This document shows positions 2,306-25,542 of a stretch of DNA of 64,000 nucleotides, in pieces. Source of the DNA: Escherichia phage FEC14; sequence record MG383452; one strand, given 5' to 3'. The stretch's first letter is position 1. The number at the start of each line of letters is the position of its first letter. A model generated the notes under the pieces. It was not told the origin of the DNA and did no database searches. It saw only the letters and a program-made list of their open reading frames with translations. The position numbers and the translations under genes were made by a program.

Positions 2306-3034
2306 TTATTTCAGGGACTCTTTTAATTCTGGAGTCCCTATTTTATCAATAACGCCTCCAGCACAGAGATCTTTGGCCCATTCTTCAAGAACATTCGCAA
2401 AAGAGAAGTTTAGACATTCTTTGATCATACTTTCAATATGAGCAAGTTCTGCAGCTATCCCATCGGTGATATCGTTTATAACTCCATTGACGGCGGTTAT
2501 TGCCTCATTGATATGTCCTGTTACTTCAGCAGCCAATTGCTGTAGTTTTGCCATCTCTTCTGAGGCACCTTCCATAATCATGTCATACAATTCCGATATC
2601 TTGTTTGTTACGGTCTGTAGAGCACCTTCCATAGCATTCAGCCATTGGCGTCCTAAATCCTGAACAACACCAAAAGCCTTGTTGATCAAATCACAATTGT
2701 TTGGCTCTCGTGATATACCCTTCAGACCTGATTTGTATGACACGGAAGTACCGATGCGAGAATACGCGTCATTGATACTTTGGTCGCCATATGTGTTCAG
2801 TGTCGTTATCCCCGTGTTGGCGGTGCTATACATGGTGGTGGCTGCTGTGAGTTTTTCTGGTGTTAGTCCACCAGCCGCCATAGCCGCCTGCATCTCCGGA
2901 GTCGCGTTGGCAGTTATCAATGGTATATTGGTACTACCACTGGTGATTAAATCCTGTGAGGGTCCGGAGAGGGACGGAAGCGGGTTGCTAAATGCATTAC
3001 CAGAGGAAAGGACATCGTAGATTTGTGCGTTCAT
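2306..3034 (-). CDS. hypothetical virion-associated protein
   Basis: 242-aa ORF with ATG start, preceded by a late-promoter-like box and hairpin. Confidence 0.5.
   Translation of the reverse strand: MNAQIYDVLSSGNAFSNPLPSLSGPSQDLITSGSTNIPLITANATPEMQAAMAAGGLTPEKLTAATTMYSTANTGITTLNTYGDQSINDAYSRIGTSVSYKSGLKGISREPNNCDLINKAFGVVQDLGRQWLNAMEGALQTVTNKISELYDMIMEGASEEMAKLQQLAAEVTGHINEAITAVNGVINDITDGIAAELAHIESMIKECLNFSFANVLEEWAKDLCAGGVIDKIGTPELKESLK
2313..2339. terminator. bidirectional hairpin between convergent genes
   Basis: Inverted repeat agggactc / gagtccct flanked by T-rich tracts, between the 1685..2305 (+) and 2306..3034 (-) gene ends. Confidence 0.4.
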
Positions 3035-3062
3035 AAAATACCCCCAATTTTGGGGGTATTTA
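3033..3062 (-). promoter_or_regulatory. late-promoter-like box (TATAAATAcccc) plus 5' hairpin ending in GGGGGTATTTT before ATG
   Basis: Minus strand reads ccgtgatTATAAATAcccccaaaattgggggtatttt-ATG; inverted repeat aaataccccc / gggggtattt. Confidence 0.45.
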
Positions 3063-3270
3063 TAATCACGGAAGATGATAGATAAAATTCTCGCAGAACT
3101 TTTTGGTGTATTTCTTTAGAAATATAAATTTAGGTTCGCGTGGTGTATCTTTCAGATCATTTAGTGTGATATAACTGATTCGCGCCAGAAAGTACATGGT
3201 AAAAGCGACACAAAGAATCAAAATTAATTGCAGCATAGCTAACTCCATATGGGTGTGAAGGCAAACATAT

Positions 3271-3693
3271 TTATAACAATCGTTTGGTTTTGGGTTTGCC
3301 CATGAGAGTGATATTGACATTGACACCTGCTTTTTTCATGCGGGTAATCATGTCTTGCGTCCCAGTAGACGAACCATCCCATAATGCAATTCCAAAGACC
3401 TCAAGACCTTTTTGTTTGGCCAGGGTTGTAGCTTTGTCTAACATATCTTTGTTACGTTGGTTTCCTGCGCCTTTCCCATATATCGTGTGATAATTCTTAG
3501 GGATCTCCATTGGTGTAACATGAACATAATTGATTTCACACCAATCACGAGATATCAAGTCCACACCAACCGCTTCACCTTCTATAAAAGTTTCGATCTC
3601 GTGGGGATCTAACAGTTCATCCAGTTTGGCGAAGATTTTATCCCGCTCGGTTATTGAGCGGGAACCTGTAATGAGCACGACATATTTCTTCAT
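3271..3693 (-). CDS. hypothetical protein, possibly SLOG/DUF2493-like nucleotide-binding fold
   Basis: 141 aa from the internal ATG (track ORF starts at 3738). Pattern VVLITGSRS...GIALWDGSSTGT recalls Rossmann-like SLOG proteins. Weak call. Confidence 0.3.
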   Translation of the reverse strand: MKKYVVLITGSRSITERDKIFAKLDELLDPHEIETFIEGEAVGVDLISRDWCEINYVHVTPMEIPKNYHTIYGKGAGNQRNKDMLDKATTLAKQKGLEVFGIALWDGSSTGTQDMITRMKKAGVNVNITLMGKPKTKRLL

Positions 3694-3698
3694 AGAAC

Positions 3699-4016
3699 TC
3701 ACAGCGCCCCAAGATTGCTGATGACGTACAGGCTGCACAAGGGAGTCCCTGATGAACGAGGTTCTATGCTCATTCCCGAGAGGCGGATCAGTTCCAGCAA
3801 ACCGTCGGTGGTCTGATACGCACGAGTCGAACCGTTTGGACGATATAGCTCCAACTCGGTTCGCCCTTCCTTTAATGCGTTACGGATGCGAGTGAACACA
3901 CTGTGGGCTTGATATTTTTGACGTAGAATATCTAAACGGGTGATGAGATTTCGACTGCGGCTGCGACGTCCCGTTGACGAAACAACTAATTTCATTTCTG
4001 GTGTTTTACAAGCCAT
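3699..4016 (-). CDS. hypothetical protein (Arg-rich)
   Basis: 105-aa ORF, ATG with GAGGA RBS. Confidence 0.5.
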   Translation of the reverse strand: MACKTPEMKLVVSSTGRRSRSRNLITRLDILRQKYQAHSVFTRIRNALKEGRTELELYRPNGSTRAYQTTDGLLELIRLSGMSIEPRSSGTPLCSLYVISNLGAL

Positions 4017-4084
4017 GTTATAGTCCTCTATTTGTAGGGGTCGGGTATGATTTTAACATACCCGTTCAAATGGTTTAGAACAAA

Positions 4085-4549
4085 TTACAGATCTTGGCAC
4101 TGATCGCAATATTCGTCGTATGTGAATGTCTCATCACACAGACCGTCACGCATCATATTGGCCTTGGCTTCGCCAAATATTTTCAGGGTGATAACGTTGC
4201 CGCCTAAATCTTTACGAAGTTCGTTCGGCTTGGTTTCTATGAAGTCGAACACCACAAAGAACCCTTCGGTGACATATTTGATGGTTTTGTTGCTCAGCTT
4301 ACGAATGCCACCGTTCTTTTTGAAGATAGAGGTGCGGAGGTTTTCGAATTCAGCCAGGTTGTCATCGTGATTCTTGATAGCGTTCAGCATTGCGTCAAGG
4401 TCGATTTCAGGACGAAGCATTTTGACCTGATCTTCGCGGTCATAAGAAGTGAAAGATTCTATGTTGGTGATGCCCAGAGCGTTCTTAACAAACGCGTCAA
4501 ATTTGGTGAAATTGTTGAATGCCCAGACGGAGATTTTTACGGTTGTCAT
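4085..4549 (-). CDS. hypothetical protein
   Basis: 154-aa ORF, ATG with GAAGGAA RBS. Confidence 0.5.
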   Translation of the reverse strand: MTTVKISVWAFNNFTKFDAFVKNALGITNIESFTSYDREDQVKMLRPEIDLDAMLNAIKNHDDNLAEFENLRTSIFKKNGGIRKLSNKTIKYVTEGFFVVFDFIETKPNELRKDLGGNVITLKIFGEAKANMMRDGLCDETFTYDEYCDQCQDL

Positions 4550-4652
4550 GGTGTAGTTCCTTCATTTCAGAGTCAGTGTTGTGCTGCTTATGGAATGAAG
4601 TATACGGGGTTTATTGAAGAAGTAAACCCCGTTTATTGAATAAATTTTAAAT

Positions 4653-4889
4653 TTATTTGAAGCGATCAGGAAGAGTGTCGTGAACCTCAGCGCTCAGCAC
4701 CAGGAACTTGCCGTCTTTAGTAGGGAAGCAGTAGTCTTTCTTGATGTGGCGCATGTGTTCAGCCGTAGCCGCTACACAGTCGTTAGTCACGTCGGTCTTC
4801 TCACCTACCCACATACTGGTTTTGGTATTCAATGTACCTTGGAAGATAGTGCCCGTCAACGGGCTTGCTCCAATCTTTTTGATTCTCAT
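4653..4889 (-). CDS. hypothetical protein
   Basis: Start moved to the internal ATG with GGGAGA RBS; ATGA overlap with the stop of the upstream gene. Confidence 0.45.
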   Translation of the reverse strand: MRIKKIGASPLTGTIFQGTLNTKTSMWVGEKTDVTNDCVAATAEHMRHIKKDYCFPTKDGKFLVLSAEVHDTLPDRFK

Positions 4890-5260
4890 AATTTCTCCCA
4901 AGTCCATGTTTGCGCCTTGGCTTTTCCGACTACTGGAACGTTACGGTGCATGTTTCTGAAGCTGCCTGTCTGATAAAAACAGATCCTGATGCGTTCATTT
5001 TCGGTATGCTGTGCCCAAACATGATGACCGTCTGGGTATGGGTCGTGACCAGCGCTACCTCCTTGTAGAGCTGTTTTGGTAACGACATAATGCCCTTGCA
5101 TGTAACCGAAGAATCCCTCAGGGGTGATATAACCAGAGTCCGTTTGCCAATCTCCCTTGCAATTAGAATACAAGAAATGCTTAGGCACCTGAGTTTCAAT
5201 GGTCATTTCTTCTGTGAGAACGAACACATCGCCGACTTGAAGCAGTGGTAAATTGCTCAT
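4886..5260 (-). CDS. hypothetical protein
   Basis: 124-aa ORF, ATG start. Confidence 0.5.
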   Translation of the reverse strand: MSNLPLLQVGDVFVLTEEMTIETQVPKHFLYSNCKGDWQTDSGYITPEGFFGYMQGHYVVTKTALQGGSAGHDPYPDGHHVWAQHTENERIRICFYQTGSFRNMHRNVPVVGKAKAQTWTWEKL

Positions 5261-5271
5261 ATATTAATCTC

Positions 5272-5718
5272 TCACATGTTGCTGATTTTAAATAAAGTCG
5301 GAACATAGCACGGGTGTTGTTCACAGGACATGAAGGTATCAAAACGGGAACCTTTAACCAAGCCAGGCAGTTCGCCTTTCTTCAGGAGATCACGCACTAA
5401 CTCTTGCGTGTCATACCAACTTTTTGCTGGATTGGATTGGGCTTCTGAAACTCGGATTTTCAACTCCCCAGTCGAATAATATTTACCGCTTTCCTTCATA
5501 TAATAAAGGTTGACGGTCAGATATTGAGGAGAATCTATTTCTTCCCAACCGTTATCAACCAAGTCTTGGCGGTCATTGTCGTGACTTTGATAATCAATGT
5601 CACCGCTGGCCAATTTATAGCATTTGAAAATGCGAAAACCTTCGATAGGTGTATCGATGTCGCTACGAAAAAACTGGGAACGTCCTGGACTAATAAAGAT
5701 ATAATTTTGTTTAGACAT
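5272..5718 (-). CDS. hypothetical protein
   Basis: 148-aa ORF, ATG start. Confidence 0.5.
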   Translation of the reverse strand: MSKQNYIFISPGRSQFFRSDIDTPIEGFRIFKCYKLASGDIDYQSHDNDRQDLVDNGWEEIDSPQYLTVNLYYMKESGKYYSTGELKIRVSEAQSNPAKSWYDTQELVRDLLKKGELPGLVKGSRFDTFMSCEQHPCYVPTLFKISNM

Positions 5719-7940: not shown

Positions 7941-8780
7941 TTAGCCGTTCAGCAAAGCACTGATCTGGCGACGGACGGCTTCGTTGACTTCTTTGCCAAC
8001 TTCGTCTTTGTCGTCATCGTCATCGTCATCATCGTCGGCTTCACCTTCTTTCTTCGGTTTTTTACCTTCTTTGATGTCTTTTTCAGACTTGTCGCCATCC
8101 GGCTTGCCTTTTTCATTGTCTTTGCCGACTTTATCAGAGAAGTCATCTTTGCCTTCTACCAGGTTACGGAAGGTGCGCACACGGGATTCAAATTCAGACT
8201 CGGTCTGGAATTCAATACCTTCCAGCAGGTTGACAACAGTGTCTTTCTTGGTGTCAACCATGCCTTCACAAATGCGATCAATTACGTCGGTGCGCTGGCG
8301 TTTAGTCTCGCTTTCTTTGAGCTGAGCCAACTCTGTATTAGCCATATTGGCGCGTTGTTCTGCTTCAGCAAGGCGACTGGTGAGGGCGGCAATCTGACCG
8401 TCTGGGTCAGTAGCGAAACTCACACCTGCTTCTTTCAGCACGTTGGAGAAACCAGTGAGGAAGCGTTCAGCAGCTTCAGTTTTGATCTGAGCGTCAATAG
8501 CTGGGGCATTTTTGTTAGCCCATTCTTCAACCACCGCGTTGAGGAATGAGTCAACTTTCCCAGCCAATTGCAGAATGAAATTTTCTTTCAGGTCGGCGAT
8601 TTCTTTCTGGTGAGATTCTACCAAATTCAGGCGCTCGACGTTGCCAGCTGCTTCGGTTTCTTGGATAGCTTTCAGACGAGCCGCTTCAACTTTCGATTCC
8701 AGCAAATTGGATACTTTATCCAGGAAATCTGGGCTGATGCCGTTAACGCCTTCAAACAGATTTTGCAATTCAGGTTTCAT
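7941..8780 (-). CDS. prohead scaffold/core protein (T4 gp22-like)
   Basis: 279 aa, highly charged, with a poly-Asp tract (ADDDDDDDDKDE), located between protease and capsid genes. Confidence 0.6.
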   Translation of the reverse strand: MKPELQNLFEGVNGISPDFLDKVSNLLESKVEAARLKAIQETEAAGNVERLNLVESHQKEIADLKENFILQLAGKVDSFLNAVVEEWANKNAPAIDAQIKTEAAERFLTGFSNVLKEAGVSFATDPDGQIAALTSRLAEAEQRANMANTELAQLKESETKRQRTDVIDRICEGMVDTKKDTVVNLLEGIEFQTESEFESRVRTFRNLVEGKDDFSDKVGKDNEKGKPDGDKSEKDIKEGKKPKKEGEADDDDDDDDDKDEVGKEVNEAVRRQISALLNG

Positions 8781-8808
8781 GATAGTTTCCTTCTGAACGA
8801 TTTTTCAG

Positions 8809-8815
8809 TATTTAG
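8809..8815 (-). promoter_or_regulatory. late-promoter-like CTAAATA box
   Basis: Minus strand reads ctcaCTAAATActg about 30 nt upstream of the scaffold ATG. Confidence 0.4.
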
Positions 8816-8826
8816 TGAGCTGAAAT

Positions 8827-9495
8827 TCAGCCCAGATGATTCAATGCTGCATCAAGGCGGCGCAGGAAATCGTCTTCAACCTGGATATTGGTTTTCACCA
8901 ACTGGTCTACAACTTTCCCTTTAACATCACGAGGCATCCAAATACCCGAAGCCTCATCAAGCTGCCATTCAACAGATTCACTCACAGCCTTAACATAACA
9001 AACTTGTCCAGAAGGACGGTCGACTGCATCAACAGCGGTGAGCATAAAGCCAGGCTGAACGTCATCATAACCGTTTACTGACTTGGTCTCACCCAGGCCA
9101 CGTGTAGACACGGCCAGATTGAAGTCTGCTTCGGCCAATGCACGTATGATTTGGCCTTTTGGTGTATTTAAAATTCGCGCCCGACCGATGGCATTAGTGC
9201 CTTCCCAGCGAAGGGATTCGGTTTTGAGCGCTGCTTCCACCAGATTAGGGAAAGGATAGTCAGGATGTGTGACTTCACCGATTGCGCGACGATCTTGGAT
9301 ATACTCTTTGTCGTATGCTTCGACAGCAGGAATACCCACTTTCTGCAGATCATAGTTACGCCCGTTACGGTTGACTTGGTTACACATCACAAACGGACCT
9401 TCGATGAACATGGCCTTCCCACCAGTTGAGGTTGTGGCCTCACCGATTTGAAGATCCTTCCCTATCGCTGTGATCTCACGCAACAGTTTCATCAT
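8827..9495 (-). CDS. prohead protease (T4 gp21-like)
   Basis: 222 aa, position between portal/core and scaffold genes as in T4; AAGGAG RBS. Confidence 0.6.
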   Translation of the reverse strand: MMKLLREITAIGKDLQIGEATTSTGGKAMFIEGPFVMCNQVNRNGRNYDLQKVGIPAVEAYDKEYIQDRRAIGEVTHPDYPFPNLVEAALKTESLRWEGTNAIGRARILNTPKGQIIRALAEADFNLAVSTRGLGETKSVNGYDDVQPGFMLTAVDAVDRPSGQVCYVKAVSESVEWQLDEASGIWMPRDVKGKVVDQLVKTNIQVEDDFLRRLDAALNHLG

Positions 9496-10040: not shown

Positions 10041-11723
10041 TTAAATACTATCGTCTGTTGAACCGGAGAATGGGATAGTCTCAGGTTTAAACTTCAACGG
10101 ACTAACATCTGAACCGCTATAATTGCCAGTTTCATCTGCTTGAACCTTCGGATAGAGACCTTTCTTCTTCTCTTCCGCGATCTTCGTTTGTTGTTCTTTA
10201 ACTTCTTCATCAGACATACGCAATACATTTCTCATGACGTAGTCTATGGAGAAAATGGAACCAACAAATGGCTCAACAGTGTTCAATGAAGCCAGACGAT
10301 CATTCAAGATAGCGTTTTCTTGTTGTTCACGAATGTAACTATCGGATGTGAATTCAAACTTTATAAACGGTTTGATCTTCTCATTCCAATCCTTTTCATC
10401 CGTAACGCCTTTCAAAATTAACTGGCGGCGCAAGAATTCCATGAAGAAATGGGAGTAACGGCGTCGTAACCCAGCACAGAACTTGCTGAAGCGCAGCTCT
10501 TCCTGTGTAATCTCCGCAAGGTTAGAACCCCCAATGTTAATAGATCCTTCCTCTTGGAGGCGGCTCTTAGGGATCATTAGAGCATCATAGAGTTTTTCAC
10601 GGAAATAGTTCACGTGATCCATTTCGCCCAATTGATTCCCACCCCCAACAGTCGCAATCTCTGTAGCATTCTGACCTTCGCGGCGCGGCAACCAATAATC
10701 CTCTGCAATACCCATAAGATGGGCATTACCTGTTATCTTACCAGTGGTGCGGTCATATGCGTTGCGGTTTTTGAATTTACCCATCATCATGGTCATGTAT
10801 TCTTCAGCAGATTTCTTACCGAGAGTACCGACGTCAAGATAGAATGCGCGTTTCTCAGGGGCGCGAGTGATGGCATAAATTACAGTCGCATCTTCAGTCG
10901 TAACCAGGTTGTTCAACGGACGGATAGCAGGATTTAAAAGGCCTGGGACAATACCATTGGCCAATGGCTCTTCACCACTATCGATGTAAACAATGCTTTC
11001 GTCATCGAATACGAGTTCTTGCTGTGAAGGCTGGAAGTTCTGGGAAGTACCAGATTGGCCAGTGAATTGGTTTCGATTATAATTCGGGTTGTAATAATAC
11101 TTCAATGTTACAGATTCTATTGCTTCAATACCGCCTTCACGCATCGCCTTCTCAACGATATAGACAGGACGAATGCAACGAGAATCAAGCATAACCAATT
11201 TCTTGATCCCGCCTTTTTTATTCGTGGGATCAACGATGACATGATATGCTTGTCGACCGTCAACATACCATTTCCGGATCTTCTGATATGCTGTATTGTC
11301 AAAGTCCATCAAGTGCATAACTTCTTTGAAGCATTCGGTGATAGATTCTTTAACAGTATCAGATATCCCTTCAACTTTGTCAAGGTTTACTGTCACTGGA
11401 GTTTCATCTTCCTCACAGGTGACAACGTCATTAACAATGATGTCCACAGCTTTGCGGATTTCTGGCTGCTGGGCCATGGACTGATATTCTTCCACAACTG
11501 TTTTAACGCTGAGAAGTTCACTCTCAACGCCAACATAGTTGTAGGTGTTTGCACCGCCCTGAAGGATTATAGAACCGTCTTGAGCATCGTCCAGAGCAAC
11601 AACTGTCGCCTTGGTGAGCAACAATTCATCTTGTTTTTGGGCTAACTTATCGGTGTCGACTTTGGCATTGACTAAACCGCCGCCGCCAAACAAACCGAAG
11701 AACCCTGTGCCGTATCCAGCCAT
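10041..11723 (-). CDS. portal protein (T4 gp20-like)
   Basis: 560-aa ORF between tail tube and prohead genes in T4 order; GAGGA RBS. Confidence 0.7.
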   Translation of the reverse strand: MAGYGTGFFGLFGGGGLVNAKVDTDKLAQKQDELLLTKATVVALDDAQDGSIILQGGANTYNYVGVESELLSVKTVVEEYQSMAQQPEIRKAVDIIVNDVVTCEEDETPVTVNLDKVEGISDTVKESITECFKEVMHLMDFDNTAYQKIRKWYVDGRQAYHVIVDPTNKKGGIKKLVMLDSRCIRPVYIVEKAMREGGIEAIESVTLKYYYNPNYNRNQFTGQSGTSQNFQPSQQELVFDDESIVYIDSGEEPLANGIVPGLLNPAIRPLNNLVTTEDATVIYAITRAPEKRAFYLDVGTLGKKSAEEYMTMMMGKFKNRNAYDRTTGKITGNAHLMGIAEDYWLPRREGQNATEIATVGGGNQLGEMDHVNYFREKLYDALMIPKSRLQEEGSINIGGSNLAEITQEELRFSKFCAGLRRRYSHFFMEFLRRQLILKGVTDEKDWNEKIKPFIKFEFTSDSYIREQQENAILNDRLASLNTVEPFVGSIFSIDYVMRNVLRMSDEEVKEQQTKIAEEKKKGLYPKVQADETGNYSGSDVSPLKFKPETIPFSGSTDDSI

Positions 11724-14819: not shown

Positions 14820-17030
14820 TCAATTCTTAAACCACTCATCCATGGTCATCCCTGACATTTCGTTGAAAACTTGAATACCCCCGAAACCAGGCAAATGCTC
14901 AGTTTCGGATGGGGTGTCTCCAACGACTAAACCACCAAATGGGAATACCTGCTGAGATTCAGTTGAAGACATTCGGTTTCTCATGTCCTGAGAAATACTT
15001 GTAGATGTCAAATCACTGAACCATTCTTGTTTAACTGCCCAAGAATATAAGACCAACGGCATGACACAGTCATCGTGACAACCGTCATCGGCTTCATACC
15101 GAGCGCCTTTGAACACAAATGTACTGAGTTCATCTATCGTGTCCTGGTCTTCTATCACCAACATTTCTTTCTCAATGAGCGCTTTCAGGTTAGCACAACC
15201 GATAGATCGGACTTTTCTGTTGGTATTGATACCAGGTTCCGGTTTACGTCCACCAATCCGTTTCCCCGTCCCTTTGTTATCTGTTGATGTGAATATGATT
15301 TCTGGATATTCTATCTCTTGATAAAGAATTGTAATAACCTGACCGCCGACGTCGTTGTTTGTTTCAACAAGGACAGGGCATTCCCCGTATTCGGTGCACA
15401 TATCAGCTATCGTGTATGCATACATCATAGGAGGTATCGTGTTATTCCTGTACTTGGCTGCTATAACATGCGGATATTCAGTTATATCCAGAATTGTTAA
15501 GACGGAATAATCTCCTTCCACCCCCTTCCCAGTGTCCGCAATCCCAAAGTAGAGACGTTGTGGGTCGTATTCCTTATAAATCTTGGTGAATTCATTAGGT
15601 TCCCGATACAACTTGGACGTCATTTTATCTAAGCATTTGGCCGGAATCAATGAACCCACGGAACCACGGAACTTAATGCCAAATTCTTGATCGAAACGAG
15701 CATCCCCCAGACGGGCACGTTGTTTGGTTTCCCAATCTGGATCTTTGGTATATGCCGGAACCTTATACCATGGGACTTCAGTTAGGTGGAAGTCGTTGTA
15801 TTGTGGATGGCGCGGATCTGCTTTGGTGACAATATCATAGAACAACCCTCGCTGGCCTTTCGGAGTACTTGTCAAAATACAGCGTGATGTATCGGCAGAT
15901 GCAATGGCTGGGAAAGTTGATTCCCAAAATTCAAAGTCGTTTTCGATAAACGCGACTTCGTCAACGTACAAGAGCGATACAGAACGACCACGGATGGAGT
16001 CCGAAGACGTGGCATAAGCGTATATCTTAGAACCATTCTCAAACTCTATCAGGGTAGAACCAAACTTCTCACAACCCTGCTGAAGGAAGAATGGGAGGTC
16101 CTGATACGCCTTCCTGATACGGTCAAGAATTTCAATCGCTTGTTTCTCTTTGTTTGCCAGTACCGCGATTTCTTTGTCTGAGTGGAACATCGCATACCAA
16201 AGAAGAAACGCAGCCACGACCGTGGTATTATGGCTGAGGAACCCATTCGTGTAATAACGTTGATCGCTGGACTTGACTTGCAAGTCATACATGTGGTGGT
16301 ACTCACCAGTCTCCCAGATCTCAGAGATGAATTCTATTCCCTCCTGGGTCATTATGGCATCTCCGGCCTCCATGTCTTTAGCAAATACTTCGCGCCCATA
16401 TTCATTGAAGAACATGTGCTCATCTGCGACATGAATTGTGCGTCCGGTTTCAGTCCTGACAACGTATTCAGCGTATTCTTTCGTTTTATGAGCGGCAATA
16501 ACCGGAACCCAGCCAGTGTCGGACTCAACAAAATATCGTTTCCCGAAACGGCTGTCTACAAACTTATTGTGGTTGCCAATGGTATTCAGTGGCACAGCAT
16601 GGTTCGGTCCTTCGAAGCGCTTGTGAAGCTCTTCTATGGTGAGATGCAACTCTTGTTGACTGATTGTATCATAGACATAAACAAGAGTATCACCACGGAC
16701 GCATTTACCGGACTGACGAGCCTGGACGACCGCATTGAATCGATAGTCCTGAAAGTCGTGGAACAACTGCTTCTGATAATCATGCATATCGAAAAGGATA
16801 AAGCCCTTATCGATCGTGGTTATCTTGTAATAGTTGGCGGCGAAGTAGTGTGCATCCATAGAACATTCAACGAATTCGTCTTCTTGTTCATCTGTCAGCA
16901 TTAACTCGACTCGAGGAGCACGCACAGAAGGTTTGCGCATGAACGTTTGGTCCATACGCAATTTCACATCGTCTATTTTGAACCCCGTTTTAATTGGGGC
17001 ATATTCTATATCACGCTTCTGATACGCCAT
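14820..17030 (-). CDS. terminase large subunit (T4 gp17-like) containing a mini-intein
   Basis: Walker A is split: ...VVQARQSGK | C...intein...HN | TTVVAAFLLW. After excision it reads QSGKTTVVA, which from memory matches T4 gp17. Walker B LLYVDE is present downstream. Confidence 0.85.
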   Translation of the reverse strand: MAYQKRDIEYAPIKTGFKIDDVKLRMDQTFMRKPSVRAPRVELMLTDEQEDEFVECSMDAHYFAANYYKITTIDKGFILFDMHDYQKQLFHDFQDYRFNAVVQARQSGKCVRGDTLVYVYDTISQQELHLTIEELHKRFEGPNHAVPLNTIGNHNKFVDSRFGKRYFVESDTGWVPVIAAHKTKEYAEYVVRTETGRTIHVADEHMFFNEYGREVFAKDMEAGDAIMTQEGIEFISEIWETGEYHHMYDLQVKSSDQRYYTNGFLSHNTTVVAAFLLWYAMFHSDKEIAVLANKEKQAIEILDRIRKAYQDLPFFLQQGCEKFGSTLIEFENGSKIYAYATSSDSIRGRSVSLLYVDEVAFIENDFEFWESTFPAIASADTSRCILTSTPKGQRGLFYDIVTKADPRHPQYNDFHLTEVPWYKVPAYTKDPDWETKQRARLGDARFDQEFGIKFRGSVGSLIPAKCLDKMTSKLYREPNEFTKIYKEYDPQRLYFGIADTGKGVEGDYSVLTILDITEYPHVIAAKYRNNTIPPMMYAYTIADMCTEYGECPVLVETNNDVGGQVITILYQEIEYPEIIFTSTDNKGTGKRIGGRKPEPGINTNRKVRSIGCANLKALIEKEMLVIEDQDTIDELSTFVFKGARYEADDGCHDDCVMPLVLYSWAVKQEWFSDLTSTSISQDMRNRMSSTESQQVFPFGGLVVGDTPSETEHLPGFGGIQVFNEMSGMTMDEWFKN
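16227..16703 (-). mobile_element. mini-intein (159 aa) inserted in the terminase P-loop
   Basis: Residues 110-268: starts with Cys (CVRGDTLV), has a T..H block (TGRTIHVADEH), ends in SHN followed by +1 Thr. Too short to carry a homing endonuclease domain. Confidence 0.8.
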
Positions 17031-17691
17031 CGTCTTCTTCCTTCACATCAACTGTTTCACCATCAATGATTTCATCTTCTGGTTGTTGTGCGGCCTTTGC
17101 TTGTGCTCTTTCTTCAGCGCGGCGGCGTGCATCTTCGATCGTCTTCAATAAATCGCGAGAAGATCGCGCCTTTTTCCCAACCGATACTGTTGTTGTTCCG
17201 TCTGGTGAAGTTGTAACATCCACTGTCGTGTCATCAACAGGTGGTTCTTTATCACCTGTTACTGCCTTGATGGTTTTCTGGTTTTCCATCAAGTCTTTAT
17301 TCAGACCTCGCATGAGTTCACCCAATTCACGGAAAACAGAAAATGCTCGCGGAGCTTCTGTGGATGCAGCCAATTTAGCGGCTTGTCCCATCATGAACAT
17401 TGTGGCTTCTTGCATGGCATATGTTGTGTCGCGTATCCGTTTGTAATCCGTTGTAGCATCAGTGTCCGCAAACTCAGGTACTTTGGATTCCTTGGAAGCA
17501 ATATCCTCCAATGAAGGCGGTTCAGGAATCGGCTGATACCCTTCCGGACGTTCACCAAACCATTCACCTGTATTTTCATCGAAGTCAATACCTGGACGAG
17601 GGGCGACAGCCTCCATTGCCTCCTTCCCAACTTCGTCTCGGGCAGTCACCGCATCAAGTGTGGCGAGTAACCTTTCTGACATATTGCTCAT
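17011..17691 (-). CDS. terminase small subunit (gp16 position)
   Basis: 226 aa from the ATG with GGAGGA RBS; overlaps the large terminase start; sits between gp15-like and gp17-like genes. Confidence 0.5.
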   Translation of the reverse strand: MSNMSERLLATLDAVTARDEVGKEAMEAVAPRPGIDFDENTGEWFGERPEGYQPIPEPPSLEDIASKESKVPEFADTDATTDYKRIRDTTYAMQEATMFMMGQAAKLAASTEAPRAFSVFRELGELMRGLNKDLMENQKTIKAVTGDKEPPVDDTTVDVTTSPDGTTTVSVGKKARSSRDLLKTIEDARRRAEERAQAKAAQQPEDEIIDGETVDVKEEDDGVSEA

Positions 17692-17693
17692 GA

Positions 17694-18392
17694 TCAATCC
17701 TCCGGATGATGTATGCCGTCTTTATCAACTCGGAACCATTCAGGAAGTTCCGACCATGGCATGTTCAAATCATTAGACATTTCAATAATTATCTCTTTGA
17801 TGACGTTTGGATCCCCACCGCCCGAACCATCATCAACCCAATAATCTTCTCCATAGATGTGACCATGTAATTGAAAATTGAATGAACAATCTATGTGTGG
17901 TGATTCTGTTGCGTCTCCTTCCCAGTTGTCAGAAATCGTGTGATTTACCAACATTATCTTCACGTTCTGATCTTGAGATAAAGTGTCGTTGTCCTTTATC
18001 TGACAGTCAACAGAAGGAGTGAACACAGAATAAATTTGTTCCAACACCTGTAGCATTTCGACCAGTTTCTTCGTTCTGATGTTATATTCAAAATCTATAA
18101 TGATCGGAATTCGTTGTTTGGACCGCGCAGTTGCAGTCGATATCTGATTATGATACGACTTGGTCACCTGTTTATTGATTTCGAACTGACCAAAGGACAT
18201 TGTTGCAAATGGCAGCATATTGGCTGGCACGTTCCTGTTGAGGTCATTACGGCGGCCAATGGCCATATGCAGCGGGATTTCCATCAAGCCACGTTCGGTT
18301 TTGACTTTTAAATCCGACATGATAGCGTTGAAAACATGGATATATTTCAACAACGATTCATGGTAGAAATATTTTTCAAATGGTCTGGCCAT
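17694..18392 (-). CDS. tail/neck completion protein (gp15 position)
   Basis: 232 aa; called from T4 synteny only. Confidence 0.45.
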   Translation of the reverse strand: MARPFEKYFYHESLLKYIHVFNAIMSDLKVKTERGLMEIPLHMAIGRRNDLNRNVPANMLPFATMSFGQFEINKQVTKSYHNQISTATARSKQRIPIIIDFEYNIRTKKLVEMLQVLEQIYSVFTPSVDCQIKDNDTLSQDQNVKIMLVNHTISDNWEGDATESPHIDCSFNFQLHGHIYGEDYWVDDGSGGGDPNVIKEIIIEMSNDLNMPWSELPEWFRVDKDGIHHPED

Positions 18393-23700: not shown

Positions 23701-25542
23701 TGCGCCAGTATCGTTTTTGACCGATACCAATTTCCAACCATCGTGATTCGCCAAAGGACGGCTGGTCTGCGATGTGAACGTCACTGTTTCAGTTGTTTCA
23801 GTGATGGTCTTCGTTTTAATTGTGGCCGTGGTACGAATCATCAGCGCCAGCAAATTGATTGACTGGTTAGCATTACCACTACCCAGAGAAATCTGCAGCG
23901 CCGAACCGACCGGAGAACCAGTCAAAGACAAAGAGCCAGAGATATCGAACTGCGCTTCCGAACCATCTGATTTCGCTGCAGAGTACAACGAAAATTCTGG
24001 GGAAAAACTATATCCCAGCGGGGCTGAAATAGAACCAGAACCGCTGCTGTCTAGCGTCACCTTATAAGTTCTGAGGACTGTGTAGTTGATATCCACGGAA
24101 CCTGTTGGCGCTAATGTTTTAACACCGAAGACCGGAAGAGAGAAGATCAGGTCTACCATAGAACTCTGGTTAAACTGGTTGGATTCCAGTTCAGCAGAAA
24201 ACATGGTGATCCCACTTTCTTCATAAGACACTTTGGTGATAGTGGACGCGTCCCCAGTCACAACTAAATCACGCATATACAGGCGGAATTCAGTTGAATT
24301 GCGTTCAGCGGATATACACAACGCCGTGGCTTGAGTAGCGCCGGATGCGTTCAATAACTTGTATCGCACAGTGCGAGATATTACTGGAACACCTTTGGAG
24401 TTCTTGGTGACCAGATAATTCCCTGTAGCAACTGCGACAGGCGTGTTATTCAGGACATCGGTATCCCGTGCCTTGTCAACGATCACCAACTCTTCCCCGA
24501 CGTTTTCGATACGACGACCGCGAACATAGGAAATACCTGGTTTCATTACAGACACGAATTTACTTTCGTCGCCGCCATCAGCAGCATTGAATACACCACC
24601 GTTGTTATTGACTTTCAGGTGTTCGCGGATGTCGATCTGATGCGTTGAAACGTTGTAATCGCCGTTGGTTTCATACGTCCGTTGAGCCAACGTGTCTTCC
24701 AGAATATTATAGGTGGACTGAGTCACCATAGACTGGATTTTACCATCACGAACTTTGGCCAGTTCAACAAAGTCTTCAACCACAGCATCATAATCAAATC
24801 GAGATAAGACCAGATCTATTCGAAGACGATGAGCGCCTGGGGCTTTGGAGTTAATCGTTCCCTGAGCATTTGAATAAAGGGATTCGTCTTCAGATTCAGT
24901 CACGATGGTTTCAGTGACTTTAAATCCGACGCGGTGGGAAGACGTGTTCGAAGTTTTATCAACGATAAGAGTCGCGTCATCAACGTCTAGGAACATCCCA
25001 CGAATGAAGTAAACGCCTTTCGTCATACGAGCAACGATAGAACCAGTTACAGCAGCCGCGATCCCATAACCAATACGAATGAAATTATCATTCACGTCGT
25101 AAGTCTGGAAATACAGATTATCGTTAACATGGAATCCGTCAGCATTACCCGCTTCAGTCATCTCAAGGATGGCCAACATCGTATCAGGAGCAGACAGATC
25201 ACGTTCAAGAGACAACACACGCGCTTTGGCGTTATTGTCTTTCCCCAAAACGTAGAGTTCAGAAATACCTTCCAGATCGGTGAATTCAGTACCACCCGCC
25301 AAAGTGAATTTCAAAGAGACTGCGGCATTGGTGATCGTCAGACCGCCAGGGATAACCATAGAACCATCTTTGAACAGATGGTTGCCCAGTTTTTCAATTT
25401 GATCCTGAAGAATAGTCTGCATCTGGTTCAGTTCGCGAGTCTGAACCTTGATAGGCATCGGACGAAAAAGAATCCGTGAAAAACGTTTCCCAGGATTCCA
25501 GTCATCCCAATACGGGCGACGGTTTAAATTTGTAGATTGCAT
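20704..25542 (-). CDS. large virion structural protein (1612 aa), putative baseplate/tail-fibre-associated
   Basis: Single uninterrupted 4.8-kb ORF with GGAG RBS and a late-promoter box, immediately downstream of four tailspike genes. Confidence 0.55.
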   Translation of the reverse strand: MQSTNLNRRPYWDDWNPGKRFSRILFRPMPIKVQTRELNQMQTILQDQIEKLGNHLFKDGSMVIPGGLTITNAAVSLKFTLAGGTEFTDLEGISELYVLGKDNNAKARVLSLERDLSAPDTMLAILEMTEAGNADGFHVNDNLYFQTYDVNDNFIRIGYGIAAAVTGSIVARMTKGVYFIRGMFLDVDDATLIVDKTSNTSSHRVGFKVTETIVTESEDESLYSNAQGTINSKAPGAHRLRIDLVLSRFDYDAVVEDFVELAKVRDGKIQSMVTQSTYNILEDTLAQRTYETNGDYNVSTHQIDIREHLKVNNNGGVFNAADGGDESKFVSVMKPGISYVRGRRIENVGEELVIVDKARDTDVLNNTPVAVATGNYLVTKNSKGVPVISRTVRYKLLNASGATQATALCISAERNSTEFRLYMRDLVVTGDASTITKVSYEESGITMFSAELESNQFNQSSMVDLIFSLPVFGVKTLAPTGSVDINYTVLRTYKVTLDSSGSGSISAPLGYSFSPEFSLYSAAKSDGSEAQFDISGSLSLTGSPVGSALQISLGSGNANQSINLLALMIRTTATIKTKTITETTETVTFTSQTSRPLANHDGWKLVSVKNDTGADVTSSFVLDGGQRDAGYYKSNLLSSAGAISGTYTVVYQYFAHSSGDFFSADSYTSMDYKDIPNYTSSTSGAVYGLADSLDFRPKITNGTSDTDMVRPNTAVILDTEYYLPRIDAIYLADNGVFGVARGISSNNLASPAIPANAMRLYELLIPPYTPNIDDIQIRTIDNRRYTMRDIGKLETRISNVEYYTSLSQLESSAMTQQVFDPITGNPRFKNGIAADPFKDFRLIDDLSEDWMGSIDTENGRLRPFVQQNVVDMTPVGWNKVMDGMVVCNYTPEISVNQEYATTTINVNPYAVFNWEGFLKINPTTDYWFENYYVAPRIINETINTRGTVQEGSVYGTWRTVSVSDRVWEPHGAGGVWWGYRYRTTVSARDVTTYTYTDKTTTTMTGEQIVETQVIPYMREIDISFDASGLRPFTRMYAFFSGRDVNLYCKPNGGNFGDPITTDANGAVKGVFRVPQNDTIKFNTGDNVFRLTDSPVDSKSADDTLTNAEIVHKSFGKKQGIQKTFVNTRVLGYTASTRTETSTSEVVVDQWRDPIAQSFMVATKNGGEYIEGVEVFFSTKSRDVPITLEIREMENGLPSHTVITRKTLNPSEVTISTDSSGGTKFTFDYPVYLQASTEFAIVLLANTQDYNAYIAEMGKKNLLSNEYIAKQPYTGVFFTSSNGSTWSPNQMADMKFRIYRCNFAAGQNVVTFDPKLGPKQRPLGLNTLNCVSGSSVVTVFAPGHGLVAGNNVTLSELTGGCGFTPEQLNKTFTVTDASYTSFKIDVGTAADSNGQIGGDNASFLGNYLVDMFYASVTNSALEGSILKLEYRYRDATSNSMSDWAEFETDTDVALPTEGIYRQVGDFQIRATMTRSENNVYTAPMIDGDDLSVIFNSYGVDPFEDVFKYVTKDIGFDNPCSTVKLFFGAMLPSQSSMKVQVKLLRAGQEMDSVAWEDVTPTSPLVNDGSTFFEYEYDKTVASNNPFVGLKVRALVRGNRVAPPSFKDFRLIALA

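Follow-up and report, generated by a model that had tools for sequence, protein, structure and literature searches.

The large terminase gene (terL) of Escherichia phage FEC14, a Vi1-like phage of the genus Kuttervirus (Ackermannviridae), is located within a 64,000-nucleotide (nt) stretch of sequence record MG383452, called the window below. Its open reading frame (ORF) encodes an N-terminal Walker A ATPase and a C-terminal RNase H-like nuclease, the arrangement of a T4 gp17-type (Terminase_6) large terminase, and the conceptually spliced product matches the T4 gp17 structures 3EZK/3CPE over residues 28-516 (E 1.4e-76). The Pfam domains Terminase_6N (PF03237, E 3e-16) and Terminase_6C (PF17289) are found on the two sides of an insert of 159 amino acids (aa), across which the ORF reads AVVQARQSGK-C110...SHN268-T269TVVAAFLL. 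The genes follow each other as in T4 (gp14, gp15, gp16 or terS, gp17 or terL, gp18), and no free-standing endonuclease gene is present between terS and terL in FEC14. At the DNA level the FEC14 terL is 100% identical to that of Escherichia phage vB_EcoM_JN03 and 94-99% identical to that of many Kuttervirus phages, with 257 phage records matching it. Here, we describe the insert, which is very probably a class-1 mini-intein that divides the Walker A P-loop of TerL, in frame, at its invariant Lys and Thr, and relate its allelic variation to the history of the surrounding gene. Coordinates are collected in Table 1.

Table 1. Features of the FEC14 terL region, with regions and genes that bear on intein exchange (window positions unless a contig is named).
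Feature	Position	Strand	Basis and remarks
terL precursor ORF	14820..17030	-	736 aa + stop; T4 gp17-type large terminase with predicted intein; Pfam, PDB match
N-extein, aa 1-109	16704..17030	-	Ends in ARQSGK, the first part of Walker A (codons 16721..16704)
Probable class-1 mini-intein, 159 aa (TerL aa 110-268)	16227..16703	-	Profiles, PDB matches, AlphaFold, GenBank annotation in relatives
Block A: Cys1, predicted nucleophile for N-S acyl shift	16701..16703	-	Invariant in alignment
Block B: A93-D94-E95-H96 (ADxH variant of TxxH)	16416..16427	-	A, D, H invariant; aligned to gp41-1 SEEH
Block F: M138-Y-D140-L-Q-V	16275..16292	-	M138, D140 invariant
Block G: S157-H158-N159; terminal Asn predicted to cyclise and release the intein	16227..16235	-	L156, S157, H158, N159 invariant
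C-extein, aa 269-736	14823..16226	-	Starts with Thr269, predicted +1 splice nucleophile and Walker A Thr (TTVVAAF)
terS (small terminase)	17011..17697	-	Overlaps start of terL; homologous annotation in CBA120, Marshall
Recombination tract, Marshall-type allele in CBA120-type backbone	16053..16719 (coding sequence nt 312-978)	-	Informative sites
Marshall-like patches besides the intein	2984-3726, 8547-8947, 10986-11193, 18042-18162, 24018-24802		Comparison with CBA120 and Marshall
SegD-like ORF, 152 aa	12355-12813	-	Between tail sheath and tail tube genes; ~2 kb downstream of terL
NUMOD3-motif gene in other phages	barely L030:630-1511; phiD3 L004:809-1687; SKML-39 L012:809-1687		Pfam; homing endonuclease annotation in SKML-39

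The boundaries of the insert are set by the codons of Cys110 (16703-16701) and Asn268 (16229-16227), and the coordinates proposed by an earlier sequence-only reading of this DNA (16227-16703, residues 110-268) were found to be exact, as was its description of an insert that begins with Cys and ends in His-Asn before a Thr. When the 159 residues are taken out, a 577-aa protein with ARQSGKTTVVAAF is obtained, and this junction aligns without gaps to SRQLGKTTVVAIF of T4 gp17 (3EZK/3CPE), which bears out the expectation that removal restores a T4 gp17-like P-loop; the spliced TerL is also colinear with RB32 gp17 over the junction. The arrangement GKC...HN[STC]T did not arise in any of 2000 shuffles of the TerL protein. 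The internal T..H block that had been claimed for the insert does not exist: a regular-expression search for a literal T..H across the whole intein gave no hit, and the sole [STA]..H match was A93-D94-E95-H96. Comparison with intein blocks A, B, F and G finds all catalytic residues present, while the Thr of block B is replaced by Ala. This Thr is a consensus feature of TxxH and is not obligatory, and it appears dispensable because the gp41-1 intein, for which a structure has been solved, has Ser in the same position.

The insert contains no LAGLIDADG, HNH or GIY-YIG homing endonuclease, in agreement with the sequence-only reading; its length of 159 aa, the lack of any Pfam domain besides Intein_splicing and the single compact HINT domain modelled by AlphaFold all argue against one. 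We also considered whether the intein is compositionally foreign to terL, and rejected this, as neither its guanine plus cytosine (GC) content (46.1% versus 44.6% in the rest of terL) nor the GC content at third codon positions (50.3% versus 46.5%) stands out. A plus-strand ORF of 240 aa that runs antisense across the intein region (16182..16904) was dismissed, since it shadows the terL frame and nothing independent speaks for it.

Five lines of evidence identify the insert as an intein: sequence profiles, conservation of catalytic residues, predicted fold, colinearity with intein-less alleles and purifying selection. Taken alone, the insert matched the Pfam model PF14890 (Intein_splicing) with E 3.6e-8 and 33.8 bits, and the NCBIfam model TIGR01445 (intein_Nterm) with 25.5 bits, above the cut-off of 24.5. 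In a phmmer search of PDB sequences the top matches were all inteins, gp41-1 being the best and followed by PabCDC21-1, the consensus Cat intein and VidaL. Equivalent segments from 22 homologous terminases (32-79% identity) were then aligned with the insert, giving 23 sequences in which C1, K47, F48, G64, T74, A93, D94, H96, M138, D140, T152, L156, S157, H158 and N159 are invariant. This set covers the canonical catalytic positions of blocks A, B, F and G, with His96 aligned to the block-B His of the gp41-1 intein, and reveals that Ala in place of the block-B Thr is a family-wide trait. The +1 residue, Thr269, is Thr in all relatives except P0087, which has Ser.

The fold predicted by AlphaFold2 from the same alignment is a confident, single, compact and beta-rich domain (mean predicted local distance difference test score (pLDDT) 93, predicted template modelling score 0.86), from which a short helical excursion at intein residues 23-47 departs with lower confidence (pLDDT ~76). 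A Foldseek search with this model returned 70 PDB matches at E <= 1e-3, and ranks 1-38 were without exception inteins, led by VidaL (2.4e-10) and continuing with the NpuDnaB, Mtu RecA, gp41-1, Pho RadA and TFIIB mini-inteins at template modelling (TM) scores of up to 0.85. The top 50 consisted of inteins or bacterial intein-like (BIL) domains, the latter at ranks 39-47. The ratio of nonsynonymous to synonymous substitution rates (dN/dS), calculated for pairs that were divergent enough, was 0.02-0.10 in the intein and 0.005-0.04 in the exteins, demonstrating strong purifying selection. Finally, related terminases without the intein differ from that of FEC14 by precisely the insert. Vibrio phage YC (Campanilevirus), a member of the same family, reads CRQSGK|TTVVAAF continuously, and the metagenomic proteins P0015-P0019, with exteins 74-85% identical to those of FEC14, are likewise continuous over the site.

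Together these observations make it very probable that a mini-intein splits the P-loop of the FEC14 terminase, as the sequence-only reading had proposed, and its class-1 anatomy suggests that it splices. Several points weigh against this interpretation. The PF14890 score remains below the gathering score of 35.8, the match to TIGR01443 (intein_Cterm) likewise falls short of its cut-off (14.1 versus 15.6 bits), block B carries Ala at the position where the consensus has Thr, and Thr is rarer as a +1 nucleophile than Cys or Ser. Moreover, no report of experimental splicing of this intein family was found in the Ackermannviridae literature; a proteomics paper on a Vi01-like phage lists the terminase with four spectra only and holds no information on the junction.

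With 159 residues between the Lys and the Thr of GKT the precursor should not form a nucleotide-binding loop, and packaging should therefore need splicing; the unspliced protein would be unable to bind ATP or to package DNA. In the pathway that we propose, the 736-aa precursor would be translated and Cys1 would attack the Lys109-Cys110 peptide bond in an N-S acyl shift, with help from His96 of block B, after which trans-esterification would move the N-extein onto the side chain of Thr+1. Cyclisation of Asn159, aided by His158 and the block-F Asp140, would free the 159-aa intein, and an O-N shift would then create a native Lys-Thr bond, so that the ATP-binding loop ARQSGKTT is formed in an active terminase of 577 aa.

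Other explanations for the insert are a structural or autoprocessing role without splicing, a decaying remnant, or a regulatory device. It is very improbable that the segment belongs constitutively to the terminase as an inserted HINT-like domain that does not splice, or that it is an autoprocessing domain of the BIL/Hedgehog type that cleaves only. Its occurrence in all close relatives, the sub-threshold Pfam score and the BIL domains among the fold matches would suit such a role, yet a Walker A GK|T with 159 residues inserted should be unable to bind nucleotide, and cleavage without ligation would wreck an essential single-copy enzyme. The full set of splicing residues is furthermore invariant, including the terminal His-Asn and the +1 nucleophile, the best fold matches are true inteins, and it is precisely the 159-aa segment by which intein-less alleles differ. 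Loss of the endonuclease domain is, in the homing-cycle model, the usual step preceding decay, and the intein could for that reason be regarded as an inactive element in a terL pseudogene complemented from elsewhere. We find this scarcely credible: the low dN/dS of the intein effectively refutes it, the intact ORF recurs in 257 phage records, the catalytic residues do not vary, and the annotated 50-kb stretch around terL in phage Marshall contains a single large-terminase gene, the FEC14 window itself not having been searched for a second terL.

The intein might also act as a conditional switch, with splicing gated by redox state, temperature or DNA such that the terminase ATPase would become available only late or under permissive conditions. 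With the insert inside the P-loop, terminase activity should depend strictly on splicing, the intein is kept under purifying selection in every enterobacterial Ackermannviridae terL examined, and Belfort and colleagues have argued for regulatory P-loop inteins (PMC4760082, PMC5050341). A selfish element in an essential gene should, however, be under purifying selection just as much, no other Cys with which Cys1 might be locked in a redox trap is conserved in the alignment, and close relatives such as P0015 and phage YC do without the intein. A switch is improbable. The intein behaves like a selfish element of long residence, its competence for splicing being maintained by the essential nature of terL.

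The FEC14 TerL intein is already known, as the same intein has been annotated before with the same boundaries. For Marshall_50, GenBank record KF669653 of Salmonella phage Marshall gives 'intein-containing terminase large subunit; intein from Cys110 to Asn268' and lists the mat_peptide features separately, and the annotation recurs in Salmonella phages Maynard and Mooltan (Kuttervirus) and in Klebsiella phage Magnus (Taipeivirus). The excised 'intein' is stored as an entry of its own in NCBI nr. An intein-only query against an index of 5.8 billion proteins recovered just two entries, this Marshall/Maynard 'intein' mat_peptide and a fragment; such a query being insufficient, relatives were gathered with full-length TerL. 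The TerL intein of these phages is mentioned in three genome announcements (PMC3853055, PMC6486243, PMC6763660). At the same site and with the same Cys110-Asn268 boundaries, the Marshall intein is 99.4% identical in aa sequence to that of FEC14, and the Magnus intein, also at this site, is 84.3% identical. There is essentially no difference from the inteins of Marshall, Maynard, Mooltan and Magnus, and the FEC14 terL is best described as a CBA120-type extein with a Marshall-type intein allele.

Beyond these phages, terminases are frequent intein targets according to a review (PMC4760082), and in 2012 a related intein was described from Campylobacter phage IBB_35, whose terminase is T4-like (PMC3322345). 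Lys|Thr is the 'classic' position for P-loop inteins (Kelley et al. 2016, PMC5050341). In the mycobacteriophages studied there, TerL inteins located at other sites than the P-loop one (TerL1-b, -c, -e, TerL6-f and Pham3880-g) spliced when tested, TerL1-a was not shown, and splicing of TerL P-loop inteins was inferred to be necessary for the active site and the pentamer; the dependence of the active site on splicing has thus been proposed for TerL1-a in the same way as here. The TerL1-a P-loop inteins differ in that their host protein is Terminase_1, not Terminase_6/T4 gp17, their sequences are unrelated to that of FEC14 and the hosts are actinobacterial. Several of the terminase inteins in that study contain active endonucleases, whereas that of FEC14 has none. 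Members of the same intein family, with the Lys|Cys...His-Asn|Thr site and 32-43% identity, occur in Campylobacter phages CP21/IBB_35, Vibrio phage VP-1, Salicola phage SCTP-2 and many metagenomic gp17 homologues. The ADxH, MxD and LSHN motifs are invariant in these as in FEC14, and the loop from the block-A region to the KF motif varies in length, such that the inteins measure 150-183 aa overall and some ~445 aa. The solved mini-inteins VidaL (6VGV), NpuDnaB (4O1R), Mtu RecA (3IFJ), gp41-1 (6QAZ) and Pho RadA (4E2T) share the HINT fold (TM-scores 0.65-0.85) and the class-1 layout with the FEC14 intein, at a sequence identity of just 14-23%.

Within the Ackermannviridae, the intein was found at the same site in every enterobacterial terL examined, covering Kuttervirus, Taipeivirus, Agtrevirus, Limestonevirus and Miltonvirus. 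Vibrio phage VP-1 (Vapseptimavirus) has a version that is 33% identical, and Campanilevirus YC and several metagenomic relatives lack it. In the metagenomic T4-like TerL proteins P0056, P0083, P0087 and P0111 (948-1010 aa) a P-loop intein of the same intein family reaches ~445 aa through an additional, charged and low-complexity segment of ~290 residues in its N-terminal part, ahead of the [RK]KF motif (KFIDS in P0056 and P0083). This would be an unusual place for an endonuclease domain; the segment is a putative coding sequence, and a Pfam scan of it gave no match, neither to a homing endonuclease that the mini-intein might have lost nor to any other domain. The terL of VP-1 (L006, 1985-4201, with the next coding sequence at 4290-5327), like those of P0054, P0080 and P0112, is apparently broken up after FDQE[YF]xC, where a GIY-YIG endonuclease is joined to it in frame and the remainder of the terminase follows as a separate downstream ORF, so that a P-loop intein and a gene-splitting endonuclease appear together in VP-1. 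P0050 (838 aa) and P0100 (970 aa) have, besides the P-loop intein, a second intein at the Walker B region (...IRGKS|C...HN|CALLYLDE), and that of P0100 contains a SegE-like GIY-YIG domain. Annotation has been affected as well: the terL of Dickeya phage phiD3 (KM209228, L004:1677-3884) is misannotated as 'pretoxin HINT domain protein' owing to the intein, and other GenBank records give 'terminase large subunit' only, or 'hypothetical protein'.

Another observation concerns the origin of the FEC14 allele, in which intein and extein demonstrably have different histories. The exteins of FEC14 and CBA120 are 100% identical as protein and 98.6% identical as DNA, with a synonymous divergence (dS) of 0.07, while the inteins share 78.6% protein and 72.5% DNA identity and are saturated at synonymous sites. 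Compared with Marshall the situation is reversed, the intein having a dS of 0.01 and the extein a dS of 0.77. Marshall-type informative sites extend over coding sequence nt 324-936 (16707-16095), and inside the tract 147/148 sites match Marshall, while 33/34 and 125/125 sites in its flanks match CBA120. The 5' breakpoint falls at 16719-16707, where the P-loop is encoded and 4-16 nt remain before the Cys1 codon; the 3' breakpoint (16095-16053) is reached 132-174 nt after the start of the C-extein.

A second, independent swap was seen in Logan contig L013 (SRR13243541_351; protein P0005), with terL at 2501-4711 and the intein at about 2828-3304. Its backbone is Agtrevirus-like and the flanks of terL are about 85-100% identical to phage MK-13, while relative to CBA120 the intein is 97.5% identical as protein and 93.9% as DNA, compared with 77.5% for the DNA of the exteins. 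The tract spans about coding sequence nt 327-740, again with the 5' breakpoint at the intein junction, and in FEC14 and L013 alike this breakpoint is located within about 16 nt of the insertion site. The two swaps establish that intein alleles do cross lineages.

The intein tract is not the only exchange in this part of the FEC14 genome. Positions 1-25600 of the window have a CBA120-like backbone interrupted by about five further patches (400-800 nt) of Marshall-like sequence, and the notion of the intein swap as an isolated recombination event was rejected on these grounds. The pattern indicates frequent short-patch recombination among Kutterviruses, as judged from sequence comparison, and because of these patches the simplest reading of the swap is mosaic recombination of the ordinary kind, with its anchor in the conserved stretch that encodes the P-loop. 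It is less likely, and in our view rather doubtful, that the endonuclease-less mini-intein may still move between Ackermannviridae lineages by targeted gene conversion and not by random mosaicism. Speculatively, a trans-acting, free-standing homing endonuclease would then cleave terL in or close to the part that encodes the P-loop and thereby drive the exchange. For inteins, such targeted conversion would parallel the 'collaborative homing' known from a group I intron in cyanophage psbA that has no endonuclease of its own.

Two genes might be imagined as drivers, purely as speculation. Some phages of the genera Kuttervirus, Agtrevirus and Limestonevirus have a free-standing NUMOD3-motif gene of 293 aa between terS and terL; in barely, SKML-39 and phiD3 it is positioned ~330 nt upstream of the intein site, and it does not occur in the FEC14 window. 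The other is the SegD-like ORF of FEC14 (Table 1), the match of which in CBA120 and Marshall carries the annotation SegD-like / GIY-YIG homing endonuclease.

The identification of the intein adds nothing new in itself; it bears out what had already been annotated, at a textbook site of insertion. As a compact 159-aa intein with Cys1 and Thr+1 and with natural allelic variants, it could be of interest in protein engineering, only once its splicing has been measured. The pattern of allele swaps is a modest lead. Since many GenBank records leave the intein unmarked or mislabel the gene, residues 110-268 should be removed before terminase-based phylogenies or clustering of the Ackermannviridae; trees based on unspliced terL would be distorted because the histories of intein and extein differ.

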